A stretch of 64,000 nucleotides of DNA from a virus: positions 32,001 to 96,000 of the IMG/VR virus record IMGVR_UViG_3300030108_004965, one strand, 5' to 3'. The translations under genes and the position numbers were made by a program. Positions 33,109 to 63,617 of the stretch are shown here, one piece after another. The notes below the pieces were generated by a model. It was not told the DNA's origin and searched no databases. It worked only from the letters and a program-made list of their open reading frames with translations. The first letter of the stretch is position 1. Every line of letters starts with the position of its first letter.

Positions 33109-33325
33109 TTTCTACAACCTCTAAATAAATTTCTGGTATTGTTTCTTCCCTTCCGTTCGCCCACAATACGGTTATTTTACCTCTATCGATACCATCATAG
33201 GAGTGTGTTGTTTTTTCATGTACTTCCTTGACGATCCCCAATAGTCCTAAGTTTAGTGAACTACGAATAAACTCCGACATAACTACTCCAGAACCTCTCT
33301 GTTTAACTAGGTCACCTACTTTCAT
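33098..33325 (-). CDS. GDLV-family SH3/KOW-like microprotein
   Basis: MKVGDLVKQ...GIVKEV...VLWANG...YLEVV. Confidence 0.75.
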   Translation of the reverse strand: MKVGDLVKQRGSGVVMSEFIRSSLNLGLLGIVKEVHEKTTHSYDGIDRGKITVLWANGREETIPEIYLEVVENEQ

Positions 33326-48829: not shown

Positions 48830-49010
48830 CTAACACCTCGTAGTATATAAGGAATGACGACCAGTTTGTTGTGTGGACATTATCATAACTACCGAACATT
48901 CTAACACGTAAGTGTTCTACTGTGATATCATTCGTTTCATTCTTTCCTACAACTTCAGCATGTCCATAGTTTCCTTTACTATCTCTCACCAATAACTTTT
49001 TATTTTTCAT
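48816..49010 (-). CDS. hypothetical microprotein (paralog of 52040..52210)
   Basis: start MKNKK after GGAGG; LLVRDSKGNYGHAEVV. Confidence 0.7.
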   Translation of the reverse strand: MKNKKLLVRDSKGNYGHAEVVGKNETNDITVEHLRVRMFGSYDNVHTTNWSSFLIYYEVLDELE

Positions 49011-49186
49011 GTGTCCTCCGATGTTTTCACTTTGATTAACCATTTATTTGAGTGGTTGCTTGTTACGCCATTTGCCCATTGTACAGCACTTGCGCCCGAA
49101 TGAGATACAGAACCCTCAACAACTCTTATCACGATACCTAGACAGTCTTTGCTTCCGCTGTATCGCACTAAATCTCCTACCTTCAT
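49007..49186 (-). CDS. GDLV-family microprotein, 59 aa (not in track)
   Basis: MKVGDLVRYSGSKDCLGIVIRV...VQWANG; RBS in upstream LEAL codons. Confidence 0.75.
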   Translation of the reverse strand: MKVGDLVRYSGSKDCLGIVIRVVEGSVSHSGASAVQWANGVTSNHSNKWLIKVKTSEDT

Positions 49187-49371
49187 AATGCCTCCAAATA
49201 ATCTTTGTGTACTCGCCTTGTCTCACCATCGCTCCATGTTACATACCATCCAAGATCCCATTCTCTAACCAGAACACCGACCTGCTCTCGATAGTCAACA
49301 TTGTCCATCTGCTCGTATTTCCTTCCAACGCACCATACCATCGTCCATTTAACTAAATCTCCTTTTTTCAT
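49183..49371 (-). CDS. GDLV-family microprotein
   Basis: MKKGDLVKW...VGVLV...VTWSDG...YLEAL. Confidence 0.75.
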   Translation of the reverse strand: MKKGDLVKWTMVWCVGRKYEQMDNVDYREQVGVLVREWDLGWYVTWSDGETRRVHKDYLEAL

Positions 49372-49378
49372 TTTGTCC

Positions 49379-49552
49379 TCACGGGTTTGAGCATGCTATC
49401 AGTTCCATATCTTCATAGGAGCAAAGAACCGTTGTGTTGTCGAACAACTGGACAACAGCATACATTTCGCTTTCTGTGTCCTCCCAGTGGAGATCAATGA
49501 TGATCCCCATCTGGTCGATTATCTTGTCCTTTACCAAGTCTCCAATCTTCAT
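49379..49552 (-). CDS. GDLV-family microprotein, 57 aa (not in track)
   Basis: MKIGDLVKDKIIDQMGIIIDL...EDMELI. Confidence 0.75.
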   Translation of the reverse strand: MKIGDLVKDKIIDQMGIIIDLHWEDTESEMYAVVQLFDNTTVLCSYEDMELIACSNP

Positions 49553-50116: not shown

Positions 50117-50145
50117 CTTAGTTCCTTTTGTTGGGGTTATACTAT

Positions 50146-50188
50146 ATTGTATCACGTTGAGGGGAAAAGTCAAGGACAGAAAATGTCC
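50146..50188 (-). promoter_or_regulatory. class A promoter + palindrome
   Basis: TTGACT-N16-TACAAT; palindrome 50174-50188. Confidence 0.75.
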
Positions 50189-50190
50189 GT

Positions 50191-50406
50191 TTATGCGATT
50201 TTTGTTATGCCTCGGAGTAGACCGAGTTTTGTAAAGACCTTTTCTTTTCCCTTGCCATAAACAGGGGATTTAATGACCTCAGTTGTGATGTAAGGCGCAC
50301 CATAACGGCTTGTATCGCAAGAAGTGCCCGTTACAATGAGAACCTCATTGCCTACGTTACATTCGTTAAGGAGAATGTCTCCTATTTTGATCTCGGTGAT
50401 GTTCAC
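50191..50406 (-). CDS. GDLV-family microprotein
   Basis: IKIGDILLNE...LIVTG; GTG start after GGAG. Confidence 0.65.
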   Translation of the reverse strand: MNITEIKIGDILLNECNVGNEVLIVTGTSCDTSRYGAPYITTEVIKSPVYGKGKEKVFTKLGLLRGITKIA

Positions 50407-50437
50407 AGTGAACTCCTTTTGTTTGGGTTATATAAGT

Positions 50438-50480
50438 AATGTATCACGTTTTGAGAGTTTGTCGAGGACATAAAATGTCC
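50438..50480 (-). promoter_or_regulatory. class A promoter + palindrome
   Basis: TCGACA-N16-TACATT; palindrome 50466-50480. Confidence 0.75.
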
Positions 50481-50482
50481 GT

Positions 50483-50761
50483 TTATGCAATCAGCCCAGC
50501 ATGTCGAGCCGCTTCGGGAAGCATAATACTTGATGGCTTGACTTCACGCTTGATAAGTCCAACGTGTTGAGAAGTTGTCATCGAGATGAAGTCACCGCCT
50601 GTCGCTGTGAAGTCATAGACAACGATACCGCTTGTTGTCCACTCGGCAATCTTGAGTTTGTAAGAATAAAGAGCAGTACCATCGGTAAAAAGGTTAAGGC
50701 CGAGAGCGTCGCGACCGTTGAGGAAAGAGTTGATTACTTGTTCGTTTGTTGGGATTGGCAT
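50483..50761 (-). CDS. hypothetical protein (paralog of 52207..52512)
   Basis: TNEQV..F, TDG..LYSY, YD.TA.G, TTSQHVG. Confidence 0.75.
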   Translation of the reverse strand: MPIPTNEQVINSFLNGRDALGLNLFTDGTALYSYKLKIAEWTTSGIVVYDFTATGGDFISMTTSQHVGLIKREVKPSSIMLPEAARHAGLIA

Positions 50762-50791
50762 TGTTGCCTCCATTGTTTGGGTTACATATAT

Positions 50792-50834
50792 AATGTATCA
50801 CGTTTTAAGGTTTTGTCGAGGACATTTTATGTCC
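50792..50834 (-). promoter_or_regulatory. class A promoter + palindrome
   Basis: TCGACA-N16-TACATT; palindrome 50820-50834. Confidence 0.75.
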
Positions 50835-50855
50835 GTTTTTGTTTAGTCTCGAACA

Positions 50856-52512: not shown

Positions 52513-52545
52513 TGTTACCTCCAATGGGTTTTGGGTTGTATATAA

Positions 52546-52583
52546 TACCTATCGGGTTGGATAGGATTTGTCAAGAAAAAAGT
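52546..52583 (-). promoter_or_regulatory. class B promoter
   Basis: T-tract-TTGACA-N17(ending AACCCGA)-TAGGTA. Confidence 0.7.
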
Positions 52584-52598
52584 TGAAAATAGTTCCAA

Positions 52599-53024: not shown

Positions 53025-53042
53025 AAGCCCCTAAAGGGGCTT
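53025..53042 (-). terminator. hairpin terminator
   Basis: AAGCCCC-4nt-GGGGCTT at the stop of 53041 gene, followed by pyrimidine tract. Confidence 0.65.
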
Positions 53043-54294
53043 ATTTGTCCACCGCAATGACACGCTCATTCGTTGTGAAGTATGGACGAGAAGCACACTC
53101 CGGAGTAGTCATCCACATACGCTGACACTTCGATGGTACGGGCTTAGGTGCTTCCATATCAGTTAGAATGATATGACCATCAAAGTTGCGCTCATTGACC
53201 CAACGGGTCGGAGCGTCGAAGCAAGTACCACCGCAAGAGACACGCTCGAAGGTTCGACGTTTCCCCTTCTTCCAGACATAGACTTCATCTTCAGCAACGA
53301 CTGTATCGAAGGGAACAACGGTAAACTCGGCATACTTGGCAAGTCCGTTAAGTTCTGCGAAGAAGATGGAAAGCATTTGATCTGAAACAGATCCCGACTG
53401 GTCGATAGAGATAGCAATCTTGGCTGTACGGTTGACCTTCTTTCCAGCATGAATGTAAGGGAAACGCTTGTTAATCCTACGGACTGTCGAGCGACGATTA
53501 GCCCGTTGGGAAGTCTTGACAAAGTATCGAAGCACAGACCGCCAGTTCACCTTCGGTGTAACCATATCTTGGATCTTCTTTCTCATACCTTGGGATACAG
53601 TACCCCAGCCACGACCGCCAGCATTGACTTCATCGGTTGCCTTGCGGATAACGTCTTTCAAGCGTTCCTCGGCCATAGCCTTAGTCTCTTGATCGACTTC
53701 TCCCCAACCGCTGTGGTCATCGAGGCTATCAGGCAAGCCGCCACCGCCTTTACCTTGCCCATCACCATCGGAAGGATCGCCAGAGCCAGAACCTTCGCCA
53801 TCTTGACCTTCGCCTTGACCTTCGCCTTCGCCATCTTTAGGCTTGAACTGCTCGTCATTCTGAAGTTTGGAGAAGTACCACTCAGCCGACATTTCCAGAG
53901 GATAGTCTTGAAACGGCTCTTGTGTCGGGATACAGCCACCTTCGGGAAGTTTACCAACCAAGAAGGAGTTGATCGCAAGGTCTGTGGCTACATTCCACAT
54001 TTTGGACATACCCTCCGGTGGTAGGCGACCAGTAACATGTTCTAAGATAAGATGATAAAACTCATGCATAAGAACCCCAAGCCGCTGTTCTTCTGGAAGA
54101 TCAGCAAAGAAGTTAGGATTGTACATCATGACGAACTGAGCAGTCTCTTTGTCAATCATTACACCAGCGGTAGGAATAGCGGTGCTTTCCACTTTGTGAA
54201 TACGACGAGACAAGCCAGCGAAGAAGGGTTCGGATTGTAGCAACTTGAAAGTGTGTTTGTTCAAGTCAAACTTGGGAGTTGTTTTGTCAGTCAT
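53041..54294 (-). CDS. DUF2201-type putative metallopeptidase + vWA domain
   Basis: PTAGV, LMHEFYH (HExxH), N.A.DLAINS, acidic Gly linker, LDDH..W, IDQSGS MIDAS, GGT.F, ILTD. Confidence 0.88.
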   Translation of the reverse strand: MTDKTTPKFDLNKHTFKLLQSEPFFAGLSRRIHKVESTAIPTAGVMIDKETAQFVMMYNPNFFADLPEEQRLGVLMHEFYHLILEHVTGRLPPEGMSKMWNVATDLAINSFLVGKLPEGGCIPTQEPFQDYPLEMSAEWYFSKLQNDEQFKPKDGEGEGQGEGQDGEGSGSGDPSDGDGQGKGGGGLPDSLDDHSGWGEVDQETKAMAEERLKDVIRKATDEVNAGGRGWGTVSQGMRKKIQDMVTPKVNWRSVLRYFVKTSQRANRRSTVRRINKRFPYIHAGKKVNRTAKIAISIDQSGSVSDQMLSIFFAELNGLAKYAEFTVVPFDTVVAEDEVYVWKKGKRRTFERVSCGGTCFDAPTRWVNERNFDGHIILTDMEAPKPVPSKCQRMWMTTPECASRPYFTTNERVIAVDK

Positions 54295-54324
54295 AAGACC
54301 TCCAAGGTTTTGGGTTATGTAATA

Positions 54325-54359
54325 TACTTATCGGGTTAGACAGGAGTTGTCAAGAAAAA
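54325..54359 (-). promoter_or_regulatory. class B promoter
   Basis: TTGACA-N17(AACCCGA)-TAAGTA. Confidence 0.7.
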
Positions 54360-54393
54360 GGAGTAAAAAACCTTGACAACCCCCGTCACTTCG

Positions 54394-55458
54394 TTAGTCC
54401 TTCTTAGCACCAAGGATCTCGATCATGTAATCACGAACAGAAGAACCGTTGGAAAGTTGCACAGAATGGACACCAGAAGCGTTGTGACGCTGTTCAGCAC
54501 CTGAAGCAATAACAGTCCAGAAAGACATGCCAATCTCCGATGGTAGCGTGATCATGTACTCAGCAACATTTTTCAGTTGATCAGCAGACAACTTATCATC
54601 GAAGCACTTAGATTGCTTGAACTTCTCGATAAGAGCGTTGTGGTCGTTGATCTTGAAGTCTTTGGTCAAATCAAGTTTGCCTTCATCCAAGATGTTCTCG
54701 ACAGTTACAATCTTCTTGTAGTTTGCAACGAAGTCATTGAAAGCGACCGCACCCTCGAAGCCAATGAAAGAAGAGGCAAGGTGATAAAGCACAGGGCTTT
54801 GCTTAATCTCCCCATTCATCGAGAGTAGAGCGTCTGAAAGACGAACCCAAGAGCGACGAGAAGGATAAACCTTGTTAGGCTCGTATTCATCGGTATGTTC
54901 AAGGTGTTGATGGTTTTGGTTGATGAAGTCCCAGATTTGAGAAACTACGTTTCCATCTGCCCAATCGAGCCAATCTTCAACCGTAGGTTGTACATCAAAG
55001 ACAGTATAGCGATCCAGTTCCGCTGGATCCATTTCACCAACTTGATACTGTGCCCCGTGTTCTCCACCGTTTACACAAGCAAAGATAAGGGTGTCGGGGT
55101 GTAGGGTATACCCTGCGATCTTCCGACTGTCGCATAACTCGAAGATACCTTGGCGAACTTCCATAGTTGCACGGTCTACTTCATCGAGGAATAGGATAGC
55201 AGGTTCATTGCAAGCGTTATGCAACCATTCTGGTGCAAGCCACGTAGTAACGTTGCCCTCTACCTTTGGTAGACCAAGCAAGTCACCTTCGGTCATCTGT
55301 GAAGCACGACGCTCGATGACAGGCAGACCACGGGCTTCTGCAATCTGATAGACGATAGCGGATTTACCGATACCGTGACGACCACGAATGAGAACAGGAA
55401 ACTTAGCGTCAAGGATGAAAGGAAGAACTGAGTTGAGAGTTTTGAAGTCAATAGCCAT
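54394..55458 (-). CDS. MoxR-type AAA+ ATPase
   Basis: GRHGIGKS Walker A, GDLLGLP, LFLDEVDRA Walker B, ACVN, MDPAELDRY, SRRSW. Confidence 0.9.
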   Translation of the reverse strand: MAIDFKTLNSVLPFILDAKFPVLIRGRHGIGKSAIVYQIAEARGLPVIERRASQMTEGDLLGLPKVEGNVTTWLAPEWLHNACNEPAILFLDEVDRATMEVRQGIFELCDSRKIAGYTLHPDTLIFACVNGGEHGAQYQVGEMDPAELDRYTVFDVQPTVEDWLDWADGNVVSQIWDFINQNHQHLEHTDEYEPNKVYPSRRSWVRLSDALLSMNGEIKQSPVLYHLASSFIGFEGAVAFNDFVANYKKIVTVENILDEGKLDLTKDFKINDHNALIEKFKQSKCFDDKLSADQLKNVAEYMITLPSEIGMSFWTVIASGAEQRHNASGVHSVQLSNGSSVRDYMIEILGAKKD

Positions 55459-55550
55459 AGTTGGCCTCCAAGGGTGTGTCCAGTAAGGACGGGTTATATA
55501 ATAAATAGTGATTGAGAATAGAAAGGTTGTTGTTTCGCTTTCATACTAAT

Positions 55551-55593
55551 AATGTATCATGCTATCAGAAAAAAGCAAGGTCAAAAAATGTCC
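55551..55593 (-). promoter_or_regulatory. class A promoter + palindrome (1 mismatch)
   Basis: TTGCTT-N16-TACATT; GGTCA-N5-TGTCC 55579-55593. Confidence 0.65.
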
Positions 55594-55757
55594 GTTTTTA
55601 TTTTGCCTCGACAGGCTCGTTTGTTGCGCTTCTTTTTTTTATCGGTGTGCGCTCCAGCACCGCTTCTTTGAAATGCGTGAACTGCTATCCAGTTACGCTC
55701 TTTGGGTTGTTTATTCTTCTTAGAAGATTTGCAGGGTGATCTACACTTGTATGACAT
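55581..55757 (-). CDS. 58-aa highly basic peptide (not in track)
   Basis: GGAGG RBS; ...RNWIAVHAFQRSGAGAHTDKKKKRNKRACRGK... Confidence 0.65.
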   Translation of the reverse strand: MSYKCRSPCKSSKKNKQPKERNWIAVHAFQRSGAGAHTDKKKKRNKRACRGKIKTDIF

Positions 55758-55843: not shown

Positions 55844-55886
55844 AGTGACCTCCAAGTTGATCGGTTGTTGTTTCGGTTATATTATA

Positions 55887-55925
55887 CTCTTATCGGGTTA
55901 GGTTAGATTTGTCAAGAAAAAAGTT
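55887..55925 (-). promoter_or_regulatory. class B promoter
   Basis: TTGACA-N17(AACCCGA)-TAAGAG; near-identical to 56988 and 58259 copies. Confidence 0.75.
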
Positions 55926-56088
55926 TATTTTTTTCTATCACCTCGAAATTCTGGTCGAGTGTCCATTCCACCCCCCAACTGTTGTTAAGCCAATGGATTT
56001 TGGTTGTACTGGCTACTTTGTTTGTTTCTACTATTATCCCCAGCGCACGGGTGTGGACACGGTGTCTTACTAAATCTCCTATTTGCAT
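55912..56088 (-). CDS. GDLV-family microprotein, 58 aa (not in track)
   Basis: MQIGDLVRHR...LGIIVE...IHWLN...FEVI. Confidence 0.75.
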   Translation of the reverse strand: MQIGDLVRHRVHTRALGIIVETNKVASTTKIHWLNNSWGVEWTLDQNFEVIEKNKLFS

Positions 56089-56261
56089 AAGACCTCCAGT
56101 TTATTAATCCAGTAATCCCCAACTCCCATTCCATTGAGCCAATGAACAGTTACCATAGTATAAATGCTCTCCGATGGCGATGTTATTTTCCTGAGTTCAA
56201 CCACAATACCCATGCCTTGGTGCATATCACTTTCATGCATTACTAAAGTTCCTATTTCCAT
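56079..56261 (-). CDS. GDLV-family microprotein
   Basis: MEIGTLVMHE...MGIVVEL...VHWLNG...LEVLCK. Confidence 0.75.
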   Translation of the reverse strand: MEIGTLVMHESDMHQGMGIVVELRKITSPSESIYTMVTVHWLNGMGVGDYWINKLEVLCK

Positions 56262-56956
56262 TATTTACCTCGCTTTTTACGGGATACAAGTTTGATTGCT
56301 CGCTCTTGTCGAAGTTGTTCGCCCGAAGGGAACATTATTCTGTATGTTCGAGTTCCACCTTTGGTTTTGTTGTATGTCGCGACCTCATGGACAACAGAAG
56401 CATCTACTTCTGTGATGAAGCCCATCTCTTTGTGTTCTCCCTGCTTCTCCTGCCAGTAGGTATATTCAGACTTGCGAACCTGTACCAAGTCACCTACGGA
56501 GTAGAGTAGGGGCTTTTCAAAAGTGTCTCGAAGTCTTGGGGCTAACTTGGAAGAAGTAAGTCTATTGCAATCTTCGAGACACGGTACACTACCTTCCGTA
56601 TCACGGGAGGCATGCAACACAGCACGAGCAGTTCGCTTGCGGTTGTCGATGTGATGGGCATAAGCCGATTGTCTTGAAGTGAGGAAGAAGGTAGCCAAGA
56701 ACAGAACCCATTCGCGATATGCACCATCCTCTTGCCACATTATACGGTGGTTCTCACGTTCTTCATCAATCTTACTAGCCTTCTCGTCCGAGTTGCGTTC
56801 CATAAGAACCTGAGCGAACTGGGCTTGACCAGAAGTCAATGCGCCCCACTTCTTCAGGCTTCTCGCCATGTCCTCTAGGATGCCGCTGTCTCGCAGATTA
56901 TTGAGTTTGTAGGCGTTGTTCATAGCGTTGATAAGTTGGTTGTGAGTGATGGTCAT
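56261..56956 (-). CDS. hypothetical protein with C-terminal GDLV-family domain
   Basis: N-terminal helical region; YSVGDLVQVR...MGFITEV...YRIMF. Confidence 0.7.
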   Translation of the reverse strand: MTITHNQLINAMNNAYKLNNLRDSGILEDMARSLKKWGALTSGQAQFAQVLMERNSDEKASKIDEERENHRIMWQEDGAYREWVLFLATFFLTSRQSAYAHHIDNRKRTARAVLHASRDTEGSVPCLEDCNRLTSSKLAPRLRDTFEKPLLYSVGDLVQVRKSEYTYWQEKQGEHKEMGFITEVDASVVHEVATYNKTKGGTRTYRIMFPSGEQLRQERAIKLVSRKKRGK

Positions 56957-56987
56957 TGTGACCTCCATTGTTTTGGGTTATATAATA

Positions 56988-57026
56988 CTCTTATCGGGTT
57001 GAGTTAGATTTGTCAAGAAAAAAGTT
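56988..57026 (-). promoter_or_regulatory. class B promoter
   Basis: TTGACA-N17(AACCCGA)-TAAGAG. Confidence 0.75.
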
Positions 57027-57030
57027 TATT

Positions 57031-57213
57031 TTAGTTGTTATCGGCCATTCTGTCGGCAACCATTAGCATAGCCAAAACTGTCTCCCAAATCAAGTCGCTA
57101 TCTTCTTTCGACAAATGCTTGGTTTCCTCGATTGTTGCTTGTATAAGTCCGGCAAAACTTAGGTTCTCCGCTAACTTCCTTATATTCTCTTCTGCTTGTT
57201 CAAATGGTGTCAT
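57031..57213 (-). CDS. hypothetical helical microprotein
   Basis: ORF track, GGAGG RBS. Confidence 0.7.
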   Translation of the reverse strand: MTPFEQAEENIRKLAENLSFAGLIQATIEETKHLSKEDSDLIWETVLAMLMVADRMADNN

Positions 57214-57544
57214 AGCCAGCCTCCATCATTATCAATGCAAAGGAAGTCAAGAGTTCATCGGCTGTGTGATCTCTGCCACCAGCGATTTCAACCATGCGGT
57301 CGACCTTTCCTTCTTCATTACAAGCAAACACTAATGTTTCCAAGTAGCCCATTCGGGTGCTTTCCGAGATTACGAAGTGATTGATCTTCGTAGCACCACC
57401 AATCAAAGAGCCGTGATTGCTTGGGTATCCATCGCTATCAATATAAAGACCCCATTCGGGAGCATGGACAACATACTGCTTGATGTAGGTATCATCGGAA
57501 AACACTGTCTTTTCTGTTTCGTTTATTACCTTCGGTATCATCAT
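57200..57544 (-). CDS. hypothetical protein
   Basis: ORF track. Confidence 0.7.
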   Translation of the reverse strand: MMIPKVINETEKTVFSDDTYIKQYVVHAPEWGLYIDSDGYPSNHGSLIGGATKINHFVISESTRMGYLETLVFACNEEGKVDRMVEIAGGRDHTADELLTSFALIMMEAGYDTI

Positions 57545-57738
57545 TTATCACCTTCCTTTGTTGGTGGTTGGAAGCCCATAGAAGGCTTCTCTGTGGCTTC
57601 TGGTGGTGTTGCCCGAACCATCATGGGCATACCCCCCATTTGGGGTGGTAGAGTAGCACTGGACAGGGCTAACACAGTTATTACTTTGTTTAATAGTTCA
57701 TCGGAAATGTCGATGGTTAGTTTGATTTGATTACTCAT
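57541..57738 (-). CDS. hypothetical microprotein
   Basis: start MSNQIK, RBS in upstream LEVL codons. Confidence 0.7.
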   Translation of the reverse strand: MSNQIKLTIDISDELLNKVITVLALSSATLPPQMGGMPMMVRATPPEATEKPSMGFQPPTKEGDK

Positions 57739-57917
57739 AGTACCTCCAAGTATCGGGGATCGCACCATTGCAATCCGTTTAGTTTTTTTATTTCATGTCC
57801 GAGGAAATGGACACGGATAGTGTGGTGTCCTCGGATTGGTTTGTTGTCGATAAGCACGACAATGCCTGATCTGAAGCCAAGTGCGCTCCCCATTCTTACC
57901 AAGTCTCCTACTTGCAT
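57735..57917 (-). CDS. GDLV-family microprotein
   Basis: MQVGDLVRM...GIVVLI...VHFLG...YLEVL. Confidence 0.78.
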   Translation of the reverse strand: MQVGDLVRMGSALGFRSGIVVLIDNKPIRGHHTIRVHFLGHEIKKLNGLQWCDPRYLEVL

Positions 57918-58069
57918 ATTACCTCCAAATCCCACACAGACATATTGCATATATCCCCATCATTCCAAAGGACTTCCACTTCATTGTCGTCGCCTATCTG
58001 TTCGGGGTCTATACAGGCAATGATACCGATGTGTCCTTGGTCGTGTCTAACTAAGTCTCCTACTTTCAT
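57908..58069 (-). CDS. GDLV-family microprotein, 53 aa
   Basis: MKVGDLVRHDQGHIGIIACI...VLWNDG...DLEVICK. Confidence 0.78.
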   Translation of the reverse strand: MKVGDLVRHDQGHIGIIACIDPEQIGDDNEVEVLWNDGDICNMSVWDLEVICK

Positions 58070-58227
58070 ACGGCCTCCAAGTCGTCGGGGTTGCTTGTCC
58101 AAGTCTTTGCTCCACTGTGTTCTCCAAACCATTGGACATGGTGGTGAAAACCTACTATCTCGATGATGACACCGAGACACTGTGTGTGTCTGCAAGATAC
58201 CAATGTTCCTACTTTCCAGTTTCGCAT
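58066..58227 (-). CDS. GDLV-family microprotein, 53 aa (not in track)
   Basis: MRNWKVGTLVSC...LGVIIEI...VQWFG...DLEAV. Confidence 0.75.
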   Translation of the reverse strand: MRNWKVGTLVSCRHTQCLGVIIEIVGFHHHVQWFGEHSGAKTWTSNPDDLEAV

Positions 58228-58258
58228 AAGACCTCCAAGTCTTTTTGGTTATATTATA

Positions 58259-58297
58259 CTCTTATCGGGTTGAATTGGATTTGTCAAGAAAAAAGTT
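58259..58297 (-). promoter_or_regulatory. class B promoter
   Basis: TTGACA-N17(AACCCGA)-TAAGAG. Confidence 0.75.
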
Positions 58298-58530
58298 TAT
58301 TTTAGTTCTATGACCTCGAAGCAGTGGGAGTATTCCATTTCGAGTTCTTCTTCTGTGTATGATAGGATGGTGGTGTAGTCCTTCCCTAGTCCACGCACAT
58401 TTCGGGGGCAAACCCAATAAATACTGTAAATGTTATCACCACGATAGTCTACATAGACTTGGAAAACTACGCCTGTATCTCGACAACCTCCAGTTGTATC
58501 TATGATAAGTTGTCCAAGTTTCAGTTTCAT
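58297..58530 (-). CDS. GDLV-family microprotein
   Basis: LKLGQLIID...TGVVFQV...IYWV...FEVI. Confidence 0.72.
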   Translation of the reverse strand: MKLKLGQLIIDTTGGCRDTGVVFQVYVDYRGDNIYSIYWVCPRNVRGLGKDYTTILSYTEEELEMEYSHCFEVIELK

Positions 58531-58688
58531 AATGCCTCCAAGTCACAGGGGTCTAGCCACCCACCAGTTTGGTGTTGTATCTCGAACCAATAAACCCTTG
58601 CATATGTTTTCGATCCCCATTCCATAACATGGGTTACAACACCCATCAGCCCGTTGACTTCGCCTCTTATCAAATCTCCAACATTCAT
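58527..58688 (-). CDS. GDLV-family microprotein, 53 aa (not in track)
   Basis: MNVGDLIRGEVNGLMGVVTHV...VYWF...DLEAL. Confidence 0.75.
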   Translation of the reverse strand: MNVGDLIRGEVNGLMGVVTHVMEWGSKTYARVYWFEIQHQTGGWLDPCDLEAL

Positions 58689-58897
58689 TTCGCCCCCTTA
58701 AATCTTTTGATTTCATATCGAGCCATAGGGAAGTTGTATGTTGTTCCGTCTTTTTTATACCAGTCAATCTGGTAGCCATGTCTTTGGTTCTTATATTCTA
58801 CGACCATTCCGAAAAGTCCGAGGACATTGTGGTTCTGGTCTAGTTTCTTCCCAGCCGCAGATAGTTCGACCAGTTCGCCATTCTCTATTCTTTTCAT
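58685..58897 (-). CDS. GDLV-family microprotein
   Basis: IENGELVEL...FGMVVEY...IDWY...YEIKRF. Confidence 0.7.
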   Translation of the reverse strand: MKRIENGELVELSAAGKKLDQNHNVLGLFGMVVEYKNQRHGYQIDWYKKDGTTYNFPMARYEIKRFKGAK

Positions 58898-59064
58898 AGT
58901 GCCTCCAGCACTTGCTTTGTTGCGTAGTATTCCCAGTCTAAGGACTGGTCAAGGGTTATTACTTTGTAAACGGGGTCATCTGTTGCAAGGTCATCATAGG
59001 TTATACCAACGATAAGCACGATCTCCTCGACAGTTTTGTCAAACGCTATGTCTCCTATTTGCAT
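58894..59064 (-). CDS. GDLV-family microprotein, 56 aa (not in track)
   Basis: MQIGDIAFDK...LIVGI...YKVI...VLEAL. Confidence 0.75.
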   Translation of the reverse strand: MQIGDIAFDKTVEEIVLIVGITYDDLATDDPVYKVITLDQSLDWEYYATKQVLEAL

Positions 59065-59225
59065 ATTACCTCCACATATTTGTTGGGCAAAGACAGTTCA
59101 TACGTGTTTCCCACCGCCTTGGTTAAACCGATGATTTTCCAGCGGTTAAACTCGTTGGATACCCTTGCGGTTACGATCCCGATTTCATCGGTAGTTGTTA
59201 TTCTTACTAAACTTCCTATTTGCAT
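59055..59225 (-). CDS. GDLV-family microprotein, 56 aa (not in track)
   Basis: MQIGSLVRITTTDEIGIVTA...YVEVICK. Confidence 0.75.
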   Translation of the reverse strand: MQIGSLVRITTTDEIGIVTARVSNEFNRWKIIGLTKAVGNTYELSLPNKYVEVICK

Positions 59226-59413
59226 GTTACCTCCATAGGGTAGGAAATAAGTTTCAAGTCATAATCCTCATACCACCCGTTATGCTGGGGAGTAGAGGGG
59301 AAGTGTACTTCATAGGCACGTTGCTTCTTTCCGCTTTCTGGAAAGATCCAGCCAAGAGCCACGATAAAACCGATGTTGCCAAGCCCATCATCTACTAAAT
59401 CACCTATTTGCAT
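59216..59413 (-). CDS. GDLV-family microprotein, 65 aa
   Basis: MQIGDLVDDGLGNIGFIVAL...YEVHF...MEVTCK. Confidence 0.78.
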   Translation of the reverse strand: MQIGDLVDDGLGNIGFIVALGWIFPESGKKQRAYEVHFPSTPQHNGWYEDYDLKLISYPMEVTCK

Positions 59414-59592
59414 ATTACCTCCAACCTGTGGCACTCCCACCAATGCTCGTAGCCTTCTGGTGTCCAGCAAACAAGAGCCGTGGGGTTGCTGGTGATAGTT
59501 GAACATTCAACAATCTTGACTACAATCCCGAAGGAAACACCAAAGGTGTTGACTTGGTTGTCTTTTATCTTCACTAAATCTCCTACTTTCAT
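59404..59592 (-). CDS. GDLV-family microprotein
   Basis: MKVGDLVKIK...FGIVVKI...VCW...LEVICK. Confidence 0.78.
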   Translation of the reverse strand: MKVGDLVKIKDNQVNTFGVSFGIVVKIVECSTITSNPTALVCWTPEGYEHWWECHRLEVICK

Positions 59593-59759
59593 GATACCAC
59601 CTCACACATAAAGTAAAGCCATTCTTTCTCGACACCTTCACAAAGAACAGTGTAAGTGCCATTCATAGCGTTTAGCCGAAGGCAAAGCCCAACATAGTGT
59701 TGGGGTTGCCCTCCAGTGTAGTCAGTGTATTGTATCAGTGATCCAACTTCATCATTCAT
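59589..59759 (-). CDS. GDLV-family microprotein, 56 aa (not in track)
   Basis: MNDEVGSLIQY...VGLCL...YTVL...CEVVS; first gene after class A promoter. Confidence 0.7.
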   Translation of the reverse strand: MNDEVGSLIQYTDYTGGQPQHYVGLCLRLNAMNGTYTVLCEGVEKEWLYFMCEVVS

Positions 59760-59789
59760 AATGTCTCCAGTTGTTTGGGTTATGTTAGT

Positions 59790-59832
59790 AATGTATCACG
59801 ATTTGAAGATTTGTCGAGGACAGAAAATGACC
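59790..59832 (-). promoter_or_regulatory. class A promoter + palindrome (1 mismatch)
   Basis: TCGACA-N16-TACATT; GGACA-N5-TGACC 59818-59832. Confidence 0.72.
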
Positions 59833-59835
59833 GTT

Positions 59836-60735
59836 TTATAGCCAAAGTTGTATAAGGTCGGTCACACCTTCTTCATAGAGTTTTTCTTGTGAGCGTTTTT
59901 TCGTTAGGAACTCCATTGCTTTGGCATGCCCTTCTTCTATCCACTCCGCACCAAGGGGAGTTTTGGAAGGAGACAAGACAGATATAAACTGGGGTTCGTT
60001 CCAAGAGTATCGAGAACCTGTGTATTTCACCAAGTTTCGTTCAAGACTATTGCTTATTCTAACTCCTATACCATCTGTGCCGAAGGAAACAAGTTTTGTC
60101 TCGTTGCCGATCTGGACTGTGACTTTGAGGTGCTGTCTGTAATCGTCTTTTCGATAATCATAACCGTTGCTGTGTGTTTTACTTCCGCAGAATAAAGACA
60201 GTTCATGCCAGTTTACATCTGTAACAACTCCGATAAACTCTTCGGTTGTACGGTTGTTACCATAGCCGCTCTCGGTCTTTAGGTTGAGTAATGCTCCTTC
60301 GGAGATACCCATTTGCTCGACAAATACCTGATGGAACATTTTACGCCAGTTGCGATTGGCATTGATAGCATCGGTGTTGTAAGCGTCCATATCTTCGCAG
60401 TGTCTACGATTGTGTTCTGTTGAACCACAGAACCCACACTTCGATTTAGACCGCTTGCGACCAGTGTTGCCACGTTTTTTGGCGGCTTCTTGCTTTGCAT
60501 AAGCGTTCATGCAGTTTTGATACCACTCTCCCCAATACTTTGGGTTCTTGTACCAATGACAGGTAGCAGTAGACTTACTTACCCCGATGGGTATCACGGG
60601 AGGAGACTTTGTAAACCAAGCATAGTCCTCGGCTACACGGGGGCAGTTGGTTGCGTTGTGCCCTTCTGCTCGGCAGTAGGAACATTTTGATTTACTTCTG
60701 TAAGAAGTGTTTCCGCTGTTGTTGTATATATTCAT
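59836..60735 (-). CDS. double CCHC zinc-knuckle protein (paralog of 61792..62784)
   Basis: CSYCRAEGHNATNC and CGFCGSTEHNRRHC, both CX2CX4HX4C. Confidence 0.82.
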   Translation of the reverse strand: MNIYNNSGNTSYRSKSKCSYCRAEGHNATNCPRVAEDYAWFTKSPPVIPIGVSKSTATCHWYKNPKYWGEWYQNCMNAYAKQEAAKKRGNTGRKRSKSKCGFCGSTEHNRRHCEDMDAYNTDAINANRNWRKMFHQVFVEQMGISEGALLNLKTESGYGNNRTTEEFIGVVTDVNWHELSLFCGSKTHSNGYDYRKDDYRQHLKVTVQIGNETKLVSFGTDGIGVRISNSLERNLVKYTGSRYSWNEPQFISVLSPSKTPLGAEWIEEGHAKAMEFLTKKRSQEKLYEEGVTDLIQLWL

Positions 60736-60989: not shown

Positions 60990-61020
60990 CGAAACCTCCA
61001 TTTGTTTGGGTTATACTATA

Positions 61021-61063
61021 AGTGTATCACGGTGGTGGGATTTTGCAAGGACAAAATATGTCC
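61021..61063 (-). promoter_or_regulatory. class A promoter + palindrome
   Basis: TTGCAA-N16-TACACT; palindrome 61049-61063. Confidence 0.72.
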
Positions 61064-61067
61064 GTTT

Positions 61068-61717: not shown

Positions 61718-61746
61718 AATGTCCTCCAGTGTTGGGGTATAGTAGT

Positions 61747-61789
61747 AATGTATCATGTCCTCGAAATAAATCAAGGACATTTTTTGTCC
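61747..61789 (-). promoter_or_regulatory. class A promoter + palindrome
   Basis: TTGATT-N16-TACATT; palindrome 61775-61789. Confidence 0.7.
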
Positions 61790-61791
61790 GA

Positions 61792-62784
61792 TTATGGAAC
61801 ATGGTATCCATAAGATTTCAATCGTGCCTTAAGTTTCCCAGCGTTGCGACCTCTACGGGATGGATGGAACTTTGCTATCAACGGGGCTAGTTTACAGTTA
61901 ACTTCCCAAAGATTTTTGTTTTTTGCAATCCATTCCCAACACTCGGTATATCCATTGTTAAACCATTCTTCAGTAGGAATGTTCTCACTTGGTGCAAGGA
62001 TGTTATCTATTCTAGCACCCCAACTAGAGCCACGGTTGAACAACTCAGCAATCTTACCTTCTTTGCCCTGCTGGGTGTCGTTAATAACAAGAGAATGAAA
62101 CGGGTTTGTTAGTGTATGAGTTTGACCATCTATCAATACATCAATGCTTAACTCTGATTTGTAATCCCAATCTGATAGCGTCAAACCCATGTTGACCTGA
62201 TCCCAAGAAATAGCGGTGACAATACCAATCCCTGACCAGTTCTCTAGCCATAGGCCATTTTGTCGAAAGTGACTAGCAGACAAAGAAAGCAATGCACCTT
62301 CAGCAAAGCCCATACCCTTCACAAAACGCTCATAGAATAACTTGCGATAGTTCTGAGAGGCTCGGCCAAGATCGTCGATGAAGTTGTGCATAACATCGCA
62401 GTTCCTACGGTTATGCCCAGTCTCTCCGCAGAAGCCACAAGAAGTCTTGCGCTTTCGAGGCTTAACGCCCAGCCGTTCTAGTCGATCTTTCTTTTCCTTT
62501 CTGGCTTGTATCCGACGTTGTTGTCGGTCGTAGGCAGACTGCATGTTTCTGAAGATACGGTCATGATAAATCAACCTACCATCTTGATCTCTCTTACCGT
62601 AGGTGTTCCCATACCAAGTGGTGAACAGGCTAATGTCGGGTTCTTTGCCCTGCTTCTTCAGTTCCACCATCTTGGCTGGTACAGGGCAGGTCATCCACAT
62701 GTGACCTTCATTGCCACAGGTAGGGCAGTGTGTTGCTCGTTTATATCGATTTCTTTCTTCGTATATTTTCATTTCGACCTCCAA
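61792..62784 (-). CDS. double CCHC zinc-knuckle protein (paralog of 59836..60735)
   Basis: CPTCGNEGHMWMTC and CGFCGETGHNRRNC. Confidence 0.82.
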   Translation of the reverse strand: MEVEMKIYEERNRYKRATHCPTCGNEGHMWMTCPVPAKMVELKKQGKEPDISLFTTWYGNTYGKRDQDGRLIYHDRIFRNMQSAYDRQQRRIQARKEKKDRLERLGVKPRKRKTSCGFCGETGHNRRNCDVMHNFIDDLGRASQNYRKLFYERFVKGMGFAEGALLSLSASHFRQNGLWLENWSGIGIVTAISWDQVNMGLTLSDWDYKSELSIDVLIDGQTHTLTNPFHSLVINDTQQGKEGKIAELFNRGSSWGARIDNILAPSENIPTEEWFNNGYTECWEWIAKNKNLWEVNCKLAPLIAKFHPSRRGRNAGKLKARLKSYGYHVP

Positions 62785-62804
62785 GTCGTTTGGGTTATAT
62801 AGAA

Positions 62805-62833
62805 CACTTATCGGGTTCAGTTGGTTTTGTCAA
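62805..62833 (-). promoter_or_regulatory. class B promoter
   Basis: TTGACA-N17(AACCCGA)-TAAGTG. Confidence 0.7.
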
Positions 62834-63024
62834 ACATTTTCTTGATTTTTCTTTATAGCCTCGGTGATCTCGATAAAGTCATCTTTTTTTATTTTTGCAA
62901 GAGCCAGACTAACAATGGCTGGGTCTGTATCCATTCCTTCTATTATATCTTGCAGTTCCCATATGCCCGATTGCTGTAAGATGTGCAATGAGTTAACGGA
63001 GATTTCTAAATCAACTAGGTTCAT
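62830..63024 (-). CDS. hypothetical microprotein
   Basis: start MNLVDL after GGAGG. Confidence 0.65.
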   Translation of the reverse strand: MNLVDLEISVNSLHILQQSGIWELQDIIEGMDTDPAIVSLALAKIKKDDFIEITEAIKKNQENV

Positions 63025-63259
63025 TTTGTACCTCCTGTATGACTTCGATTTCATTGGACGAACAGCCGATATAGTCTCCGTTCTCCAATGCTACGTGCCA
63101 ACGACCCCAGTGTTCTTGTCCGTGTTCATCGACACCTTCATCGGCCATGACTATCCCGATCCTGTCGGAATAAACATAGCCCCTTTTATCTTTCCATTCT
63201 TTTACAATGACCAGTTCCCCGATCTGAATGGCTTTTTTGCTTCTGTTTATTTTTAACAT
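63011..63259 (-). CDS. GDLV-family microprotein
   Basis: IQIGELVIV...IGIVM...WHVAL...EIEVI. Confidence 0.72.
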   Translation of the reverse strand: MLKINRSKKAIQIGELVIVKEWKDKRGYVYSDRIGIVMADEGVDEHGQEHWGRWHVALENGDYIGCSSNEIEVIQEVQNEPS

Positions 63260-63420
63260 AGTATCTCCAAATCTTCTTTGTCTACCCAATCATCTACCAA
63301 ATCTTCTTCACAGACCCAATAGCAAAGTATCATTCCATCCGCTAAATCTTCATGATCCACGATGATACCTATCCCCCAGTAGGGATAACGGGGGTTGTGG
63401 ACTAAATCTCCTATTTTCAT
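63253..63420 (-). CDS. GDLV-family microprotein, 55 aa
   Basis: MKIGDLVHNP...IGIIVD...CYW...DLEIL. Confidence 0.78.
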   Translation of the reverse strand: MKIGDLVHNPRYPYWGIGIIVDHEDLADGMILCYWVCEEDLVDDWVDKEDLEILC

Positions 63421-63617
63421 ATTACCTCCAAGTAGTAGCCATATTCGTGCGTAGGAGATGCGTTGTGTGCCCACAGCACCGCATACTCCTCATGTTCGTC
63501 CTCATACCCCCCTGCACCTCGGTAGGAGACTATCATCCCGATCCAATCGAACTCATTGCCAGATGGATCAGCGAAGCCCTTCTGGATCTTTACAAGGTCG
63601 CCTATCTCAAAGTTCAT
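63417..63617 (-). CDS. GDLV-family microprotein
   Basis: FEIGDLVKI...IGMIVSY...AVLW...YLEVI. Confidence 0.78.
   Translation of the reverse strand: MNFEIGDLVKIQKGFADPSGNEFDWIGMIVSYRGAGGYEDEHEEYAVLWAHNASPTHEYGYYLEVI

Follow-up and report, generated by a model that had tools for sequence, protein, structure and literature searches.

In overlapping gene pairs, a Shine-Dalgarno (SD) sequence located inside the upstream gene is the norm, and 13 of 14 pairs tested were strictly coupled (PMC6728339). On the scale of whole gene strings, promoter-early stem-loops (PeSLs) mediate modular shuffling in the hyperplastic regions of T4-type phages (PMC2839356, PMC4122927), and the cassette arrays of integrons are the system to which the locus described here was first likened. 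This locus lies in a 64,000-nt stretch of viral DNA (hereafter the window), corresponding to bases 32,001-96,000 of the 191,696-bp IMG/VR virus record IMGVR_UViG_3300030108_004965, which is complete by CheckV. It consists of head-to-tail arrays of minigenes of a single family, and we focus on the junctions between them, in which the codons for the last strand of one protein (the "LEV" codons) contain the SD of the following gene.

These junctions are members of the class of overlapping pairs with an intragenic SD (PMC6728339; reviewed in PMC12548453). They share with the described pairs short or ATGA overlaps in which stop and start codons overlap, a strong SD that is encoded near the 3' end of the upstream gene and precedes the start by 4-6 nt, and a shaping of the codons at the end of the upstream gene by the downstream SD. 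They differ from them because the SD is placed in strand 5, a conserved structural motif shared by a family of paralogues, with another paralogue as the usual next gene, because the junction is a 30-38-nt repeat with three functions, present in dozens of copies in a genome and throughout the family, and because 10- and 14-nt overlaps are as regular as ATGA. The general principle is known; what sets this case apart is that a strand motif common to the paralogues also provides the SD from which the following paralogue is read.

The minigene family and its junctions

A hidden Markov model (HMM) built from the array and iterated over all open reading frames (ORFs) of the genome retrieved 41 copies of a ~55-aa family, all on the minus strand and most of them between 49 and 67.6 kb in window coordinates. 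Members follow the pattern M-x-[IV]-G-D-L-V ... [LMV]-E-[VA]-[IL], with an HMM consensus M-K-V-G-D-L-V ... G-I-V-V ... V-x-W ... L-E-V-I, and their gene bodies share only ~30% identity. The AlphaFold2 model of one of them (the protein encoded at 57908-58069, modeled from the alignment; pLDDT 91.4) is a five-strand beta-barrel within the 50-60-residue range, with strands at residues 6-9, 14-20, 30-35, 40-44, and 48-52, the last one being L-E-V-I-C. The minigene product is thus predicted to be a single-domain SH3/KOW/Tudor-like barrel. The model resembles known small barrels of this type, namely HspQ/YccV, the UvrD/PcrA Tudor domain, the KOW domains of Spt5, NusG, and eS4, and YorP of SPbeta, which are the best Foldseek matches (TM 0.7-0.8 to 5ycq, 7egs_B, 5dma, 3p8b_B, and 2heq). 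It differs from them in that no solved protein is significantly similar to the family in sequence. In structure, Foldseek gave E = 7.8e-3 at best (5ycq), with none below 1e-3, and a profile search of PDB sequences gave a weak match to the NusG KOW domain (E = 0.012). No family in Pfam or PHROGs matches the minigene proteins. A profile search of metagenomic proteins retrieved 2,914 representatives (50% identity) at E <= 0.001, a few of which carry the JGI label "HspQ" while the others are unnamed.

The initial annotation had quoted five minus-strand junctions, with ATG codons at 56088, 57917, 59064, 59225, and 59413, and all five read as quoted. In the upstream frame they are (T/C/A/G)TG GAG GTN NTA TGC AA(A/G) TAG, that is x-E-V-x-C-K-stop, and in the downstream frame GGAGG, 4 nt, ATG CAA (A/G)TA GG. 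The recurrent CK tail is therefore the M-Q-I-G codons of the next gene read out of frame, up to a stop, as had been proposed. The ATGA-overlap variants were also found, at 49186 (LEAL-stop), 57738 (LEVL-stop), 58069 (LEAV-stop), 58530 (LEAL-stop), 58897 (LEAL-stop), and 63420 (LEVI-stop), as was an NESR variant at 33325, where the SD is only GGAG. The NESR tail defines a third class, with a 14-nt overlap, in which the M-K-V-G-D codons of the next gene are read out of frame; this class, GGAGGTGATAAATG(A/G)AAGTAGGTGA, reads E-V-I-N-E-S-R-stop in the upstream frame and is dominant just past the window end. Adjoining family copies overlap by 4, 10, or 14 nt, and over the whole genome the overlaps of minus-strand gene pairs are distributed as -4 (29 pairs), -14 (15), -1 (10), and -10 (7). 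Such packing is possible because strand 1 begins at the initiator Met and strand 5 ends the protein. The 21-nt pattern TGGAGGNNNNATGNAARTAGG occurs seven times in the window (0.00 expected from 100 shuffles), and in a search for repeats the 48-64-kb region yielded a junction repeat of 38 nt (family D3) in 10 copies. Among 255 small metagenomic homologues, most C-termini are CK, NESR-type, or one-residue tails.

Codon choice at the junction and initiation of the next gene

All 24 coupled family junctions have GGAGG within the terminal codons of the upstream gene, with 4-6 nt between it and the ATG, and it is formed by the last-strand codons NTG-GAG-G(T/C)N. Here, a copy is called coupled if the start codon of an ORF follows the motif by 4-6 nt, and uncoupled if no gene lies directly behind it. 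In this genome the Glu codon is GAG in 24/24 coupled copies (binomial against 0.39, p = 1.5e-10) versus 4/12 uncoupled ones (Fisher p = 1.6e-5). The codon before Glu is NTG in every coupled copy (17 Leu, all TTG or CTG, 5 Met, and 2 Val encoded by GTG), and the codon after it begins with G (Val/Ala) in 22 of the 24. The uncoupled copies use GAA in 8 cases out of 12, and have Ile, Leu, Phe, His, Asp, Cys, and other residues as neighbors. As a background, GAG makes up 31% of Glu codons in the long genes of the genome, 39% in the early region, and 35% in Glu-Val pairs, and TTG/CTG make up 28-32% of Leu codons in the long genes. The same contrast was found in relatives (12 loci from ~10 other phage contigs, some with ATPases only 58-69% identical), in which GAG is present in 83/88 coupled and 13/34 uncoupled copies (Fisher p = 1.5e-10); when all uncoupled copies are pooled, GAG accounts for 17/46, exactly at background.

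The conservation of synonymous positions was addressed with 28 orthologue pairs between the window and three related contigs, by considering only positions with identical residues. The fraction of identical codons is 0.61 in gene bodies, 0.74 in codons 2-8 (p = 0.002), and 0.87 in the four C-terminal motif codons (p = 4e-6 vs. bodies), so that the junction is conserved above the synonymous expectation at both of its ends.

These data uphold the central proposal of the initial annotation, that the last conserved strand encodes the SD of its neighbor: the Glu codon is GAG-biased beyond its use elsewhere in the genome, and the contrast between coupled and uncoupled copies shows selection. Glu and its hydrophobic neighbors are a protein feature of strand 5. 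Because GAG is essentially fixed in coupled copies and at background in uncoupled ones, it is strongly supported by the sequences compared that the choice of GAG, the preceding NTG, and the restriction to Val/Ala after Glu are imposed by the downstream SD. On the other side of the junction, codons 3, 6, and 7 of downstream genes favor GTA/ATA, TTA, and GTA, respectively, beyond the AT-rich N-terminal background of the genome, and part of this preference arises because the upstream frame needs a stop (TAG from ATA-GG, TGA from GGT-GAT).

The same signal is found outside coding sequences. In noncoding leaders, GGAGG is preceded by T in 27 of 44 genes, with a spacing of mostly 4-5 nt, and the leader behind repeated cassettes, for example GACTTGGAGGTCTTATG, differs little from the coding junction at 56088. 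Since coding junctions and noncoding leaders share this consensus, the phage has one preferred initiation region, TGGAGG(T/A), 4-6 nt, ATG, which is written into strand 5. We also considered the T before GGAGG as an extension of rRNA pairing and rejected it: T at -1 of GGAGG does not pair with the canonical 16S tail (anti-SD), yet it is preferred in noncoding leaders as well.

The explanation that we favor, with good confidence, is that strand-5 codons are chosen to carry the SD of the next minigene in head-to-tail arrays. The initiation consensus of the phage would be written into strand 5 of the upstream protein via codon choice, each junction would allow the next minigene to be initiated efficiently, whether through termination-reinitiation or because ribosomes bind the SD directly, and long polycistronic strings of minigenes could all be translated through their junction SDs. 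Translational coupling is plausible and permitted by the junction anatomy, by analogy with the overlapping pairs cited above. Several points weigh against this explanation or limit its reach. The excess of A-ending codons at positions 3, 6, and 7 is only partly explained by the N-terminal AT preference. Paralogues share ancestry and the counts are not fully independent, an effect that is offset by the low identity of the bodies and by the recurrence of the pattern in distant relatives. Finally, when 10 junctions were folded with their flanks, the SDs were free and z-scores were mostly near zero (eight between -0.1 and +0.9, the others -0.86 and -2.33); with unstructured junctions and free SDs, independent initiation of each gene is equally possible.

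Array turnover and competing explanations

The initial annotation had further suggested that the junction could serve as recombination homology for gain, loss, and shuffling of modules. We fetched homologous IMG/VR regions by using the MoxR-like ATPase and the zinc-knuckle proteins described below as anchors (with the 299-aa query as an alignment), and found that neither the order nor the content of the arrays is invariant: phages whose ATPases are 94-96% identical in protein have very different arrays. In the related contig L015, the genes at 59225 and 59064 are absent and the orthologue of the 49186 gene (49007-49186) lies inside the upstream array. The 58530 orthologue follows the operon of the 231-aa gene in L015 and precedes the 231-aa gene in a second contig, L014. 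Many array positions are occupied by nonorthologous paralogues in relatives. In four genomes taken together, we counted 23 conserved and 14 rearranged tight adjacencies, plus 46 in which just one of the two genes has an orthologue, and the canonical -4/-10/-14 overlaps are kept at 10 of the 14 rearranged and 35 of the 46 one-sided adjacencies. Homology breaks are not random either, 26% of the ends of homology blocks falling no more than 10 nt from a start, versus 6% for random points; in five aligned events, homology starts or stops within ~10 nt of the SD-ATG, and one L015 junction is a chimera that combines the left half of one window junction with the right half of a different one. Relatives also lose homology at the boundaries of non-family genes and in the repeated D1 and D2 cassettes described below. 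As a separate observation, the orthologues L014:5014-5217 and window 58685-58897 differ only at their extreme N-terminus (MQVGDLVELSAAG vs. MKRIENGELVELSAAG), as would result from gain or loss of the canonical motif at the junction.

Such turnover is what would be expected if the 30-38-nt junction repeat were also a substrate of homologous recombination, by which minigenes are moved in frame, with portability itself under selection; this role would add to the SD function, not replace it. The phage encodes a RecA/UvsX-type recombinase, which could possibly use the repeats to add, delete, and move minigenes, and there is a precedent in T4-type phages (PMC2839356, PMC4122927). However, a gap-free array combined with selection for intact genes leaves breakpoints at boundaries under any mechanism, and a non-family gene of 114 aa was inserted or deleted exactly from ATG to ATG, with only ATGA in common, so that the long junction was not needed. 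Breaks also form a second cluster, which maps to the promoter-like cassette repeats at 60-100 nt upstream of start codons. The relatives compared are ~25% diverged in DNA, too far to catch recent events, and among the contigs of four marine or seawater runs those of a near-identical strain (X2) show no module indel; these contigs are short, and their joints at junction and cassette repeats, with unreliable sides of 20-37 nt, were counted neither way. We therefore regard the recombination linker as a tentative proposal. A causal role of the junction in recombination is plausible, if doubtful at present, and the same holds for the reading in which the junction would be a selected "universal connector" (strand-5 end, SD, strand-1 start) for UvsX-type recombination, any two of its dozens of copies serving to add, delete, or transpose entire minigenes in frame while their translation is preserved.

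With respect to turnover, PeSL-mediated shuffling (PMC2839356, PMC4122927) is, by analogy, a closer precedent than integrons. Here too the phage is of the T4 type (gp23, UvsX-like), the genes are small and belong to a hyperplastic early region, and short repeats at gene boundaries coincide with the points of indel, replacement, and translocation between relatives. The LEV junction may act like a PeSL as recombination homology, but it differs from PeSLs in being coding and a translational signal, without promoter or stem-loop terminator, and the short metagenome contigs at hand showed neither mini-circles nor recent events; the D1 and D2 promoter-like cassettes of the same region look more like their true counterparts. 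Integron arrays resemble the locus as strings of small, variable, same-strand genes with a recurring boundary sequence. The integron-like label of the initial annotation nevertheless fits poorly, and we reject the analogy. The phage genome has neither IntI nor any other tyrosine recombinase (no match to the tyrosine integrase family PF00589 in the 191.7-kb genome, whereas all control genomes matched). Its boundary sequence, a coding repeat in direct orientation, lacks the dyad symmetry of attC, and no attC-like fold was found at the junctions (10 folds compared with shuffles; no Rfam match). In place of the single Pc promoter of integrons there are several internal promoter-like cassettes, 13 copies of two types of which interrupt the arrays, so that these are not promoterless strings.

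Returning to the codon signal itself, recent tandem duplication or gene conversion between neighbors could have made the junctions alike in the absence of translational selection. Junction types are indeed locally clustered (GGAGGTGATAAATG, 63.9-66.4 kb; GGAGGTAATATGCAA, 56-59.4 kb in window coordinates), and the A-ending codons of the N-terminal motif exceed the N-terminal background. This homogenization is nonetheless improbable as the origin of the signal, because the bodies beside identical junctions are only ~30% identical, the same junction types occur in phages with 58-69% identical ATPases and in metagenomic homologues worldwide, and conversion leaves the switch to GAA in uncoupled copies unexplained. 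Still less probable is that the junction persists only as the first and last beta-strands of paralogues, with GGAGG as an accident of Leu-Glu-Val codons. Strand 5 does belong to the predicted barrel, and Glu and its hydrophobic neighbors are conserved even in copies with no gene behind, but GAG, NTG, and the G-initial codon are essentially fixed only where a start lies 4-6 nt behind and are otherwise at background, and within the genes, synonymous positions reach their highest conservation in the motif.

Programmed frameshifting, in which the internal SD before an out-of-frame start would fuse successive modules into multidomain proteins, has a parallel in the SD-stimulated frameshifting of prfB and dnaX and could be invoked for the known two- or multimodule relatives (P0017, P0026, and P0028; repeat proteins P0001, P0036, and P0125), but it is the least credible of these alternatives and was rejected since none of the three junction classes contains a slippery heptamer or shift-prone codon, the fusions seen in relatives are of the ordinary in-frame kind, and an optimally spaced ATG is available to every downstream gene. 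These six metagenomic proteins carry two to seven family domains in one frame, and in P0028 the sequence ...DEVI continues directly into MIGSLV..., so that in-frame joining of modules also seems possible.

The arrays in the phage genome and their significance

The positions of the minigenes, junction repeats, cassettes, and neighboring genes are given in table 1.

Table 1. Features of the minigene arrays and their surroundings (window coordinates).
Feature	Position	Strand	Remark
Family minigene, 62 aa, MKVGDLVK...HRLEVICK-stop	59404-59592	-	TTG GAG GTA = SD of next gene
Family minigene, 65 aa, MQIGDLVD...PMEVTCK-stop	59216-59413	-	10-nt overlap at either side
Family minigene, 56 aa, MQIGSLVR...YVEVICK-stop	59055-59225	-	
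Family minigene, 56 aa, MQIGDIAF...QVLEAL-stop	58894-59064	-	ATGA overlap with next gene
Divergent family member, 70 aa, MKRIENGELVELS...	58685-58897	-	L014 orthologue starts MQVGDLVELS
Family minigene, 53 aa, MNVGDLIR...CDLEAL-stop	58527-58688	-	
Operon-final gene, 77 aa, ...CFEVIELK-stop	58297-58530	-	TTC GAG GTC, without GGAGG; no gene directly behind
D2 promoter-like cassette, 66 nt	58242-58307	-	Followed by leader ...GACTTGGAGGTCTTATG
Family minigene, 53 aa, MRNWKVGTLV...DDLEAV-stop	58066-58227	-	
Family minigene, 53 aa, MKVGDLVR...WDLEVICK-stop	57908-58069	-	Modeled with AlphaFold2; strand 5 LEVIC
Family minigene, 60 aa, MQVGDLVR...RYLEVL-stop	57735-57917	-	LEV codons = SD of non-family gene 57541-57738
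231-aa protein, C-terminal family domain ...YSVGDLVQVRK...	56261-56956	-	
Family minigene, 60 aa, MEIGTLVM...NKLEVLCK-stop	56079-56261	-	
Terminal family minigene, 58 aa, ...NFEVIEKNKLFS-stop	55912-56088	-	TTC GAG GTG, without GGAGG; no gene behind
D3 junction repeat, 38 nt, first copies	56065-56102, 49163-49200, 57894-57931, 58046-58083, 58665-58702	-	
D3 junction repeat, 38 nt, other copies	59041-59078, 59202-59239, 59390-59427, 59569-59606, 63397-63434		
Two chained family minigenes	63417-63617, 63253-63420	-	...YYLEVI-stop; ...DLEILC-stop
Second small array, three family minigenes	49379-49552, 49183-49371, 49007-49186	-	3' of ATPase
D1 cassettes, 72 nt, 7 copies	50121-50192, 50413-50484, 50767-50838, 55526-55597, 59765-59836, 60996-61067, 61722-61793		
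D2 cassettes, 66 nt, 6 copies	52529-52594, 54308-54373, 55870-55935, 56971-57036, 58242-58307, 62788-62853		
MoxR-like AAA ATPase, then 417-aa protein	53041-55458	-	phrog_1297; phrog_1314
Paralogous 299- and 326-aa proteins	59836-60735, 61792-62772	-	Zinc-knuckle motifs

The 191.7-kb genome encodes a T4 gp23-type major capsid domain (4.7e-62) and a RecA/UvsX-type recombinase (8.6e-41), RecT and ERF recombinases not having been found in it, and 20 marine or seawater metagenome runs contain parts of the window; judged from gp23 and RecA/UvsX, the source is a marine T4-like phage. Nearly all genes are on the minus strand. The stretch belongs to the phage's hyperplastic early region, in which very small genes are crowded and the GC content is 44-47%, versus 33-38% elsewhere. 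No Rfam family was detected in window 46-64 kb. Neither a megablast search of the array nor a tblastn search with one family member (none at E <= 0.01) gave a match among 50,697 phage records, and at this search sensitivity the family appears to have no cultured relative that carries it; the isolate phages with the closest ATPase are Vibrio phages (32% identity).

The MoxR-like ATPase region is the best conserved anchor locally (94-96% identical in close relatives). The 417-aa protein encoded next to it is labeled an HNH endonuclease in PHROGs, and its sequence resembles a VWA/metallopeptidase partner. The two paralogous proteins of 299 and 326 aa, located inside the minigene arrays, have two conserved C-x2-C-x4-H-x4-C zinc-knuckle motifs and are 60-72% identical in relatives; a PHROG search gave no match for them. 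The 231-aa protein combines its family domain with an unrelated N-terminal part of ~160 residues and is conserved in L014 and L015 (54-71% identity).

The D1 and D2 cassettes sit in front of operons. D1 contains a GGACAT..ATGTCC hairpin and TCGACA-16-(TG)TACATT with an extended TG, followed by a leader ...TATAACCCAAAC, and D2 contains TTGACA, but with 23 nt to TATTAT. A scan of the region for sigma70-type promoters gave 30 matches versus 24.1 in shuffles, that is, no enrichment, and the cassettes are thus only promoter-like.

The junctions described here show, in a natural setting, how the same bases can serve both as a signal for translation and as a structural motif of a protein, and the contrast between coupled and uncoupled copies shows, over more than 100 junctions of several phages, that the SD dictates the choice of codon and even of residue (Val/Ala, not Ile/Leu). 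For annotation, they explain the CK and NESR tails of thousands of tiny metagenomic proteins, and the junction pattern helps start calling in dense arrays. If the junction recombines, the PeSL idea of modular shuffling would extend from regulatory to coding repeats in T4-type phages and would provide a mechanism for the turnover of an abundant, uncharacterized family of early phage proteins. Should the junction be a universal connector, this would explain both the expansion of the family to at least 40 copies per genome and its fast turnover between relatives, and the junction would be a coding-embedded counterpart of the PeSL, generating a rapidly reshuffled library of small binder proteins.

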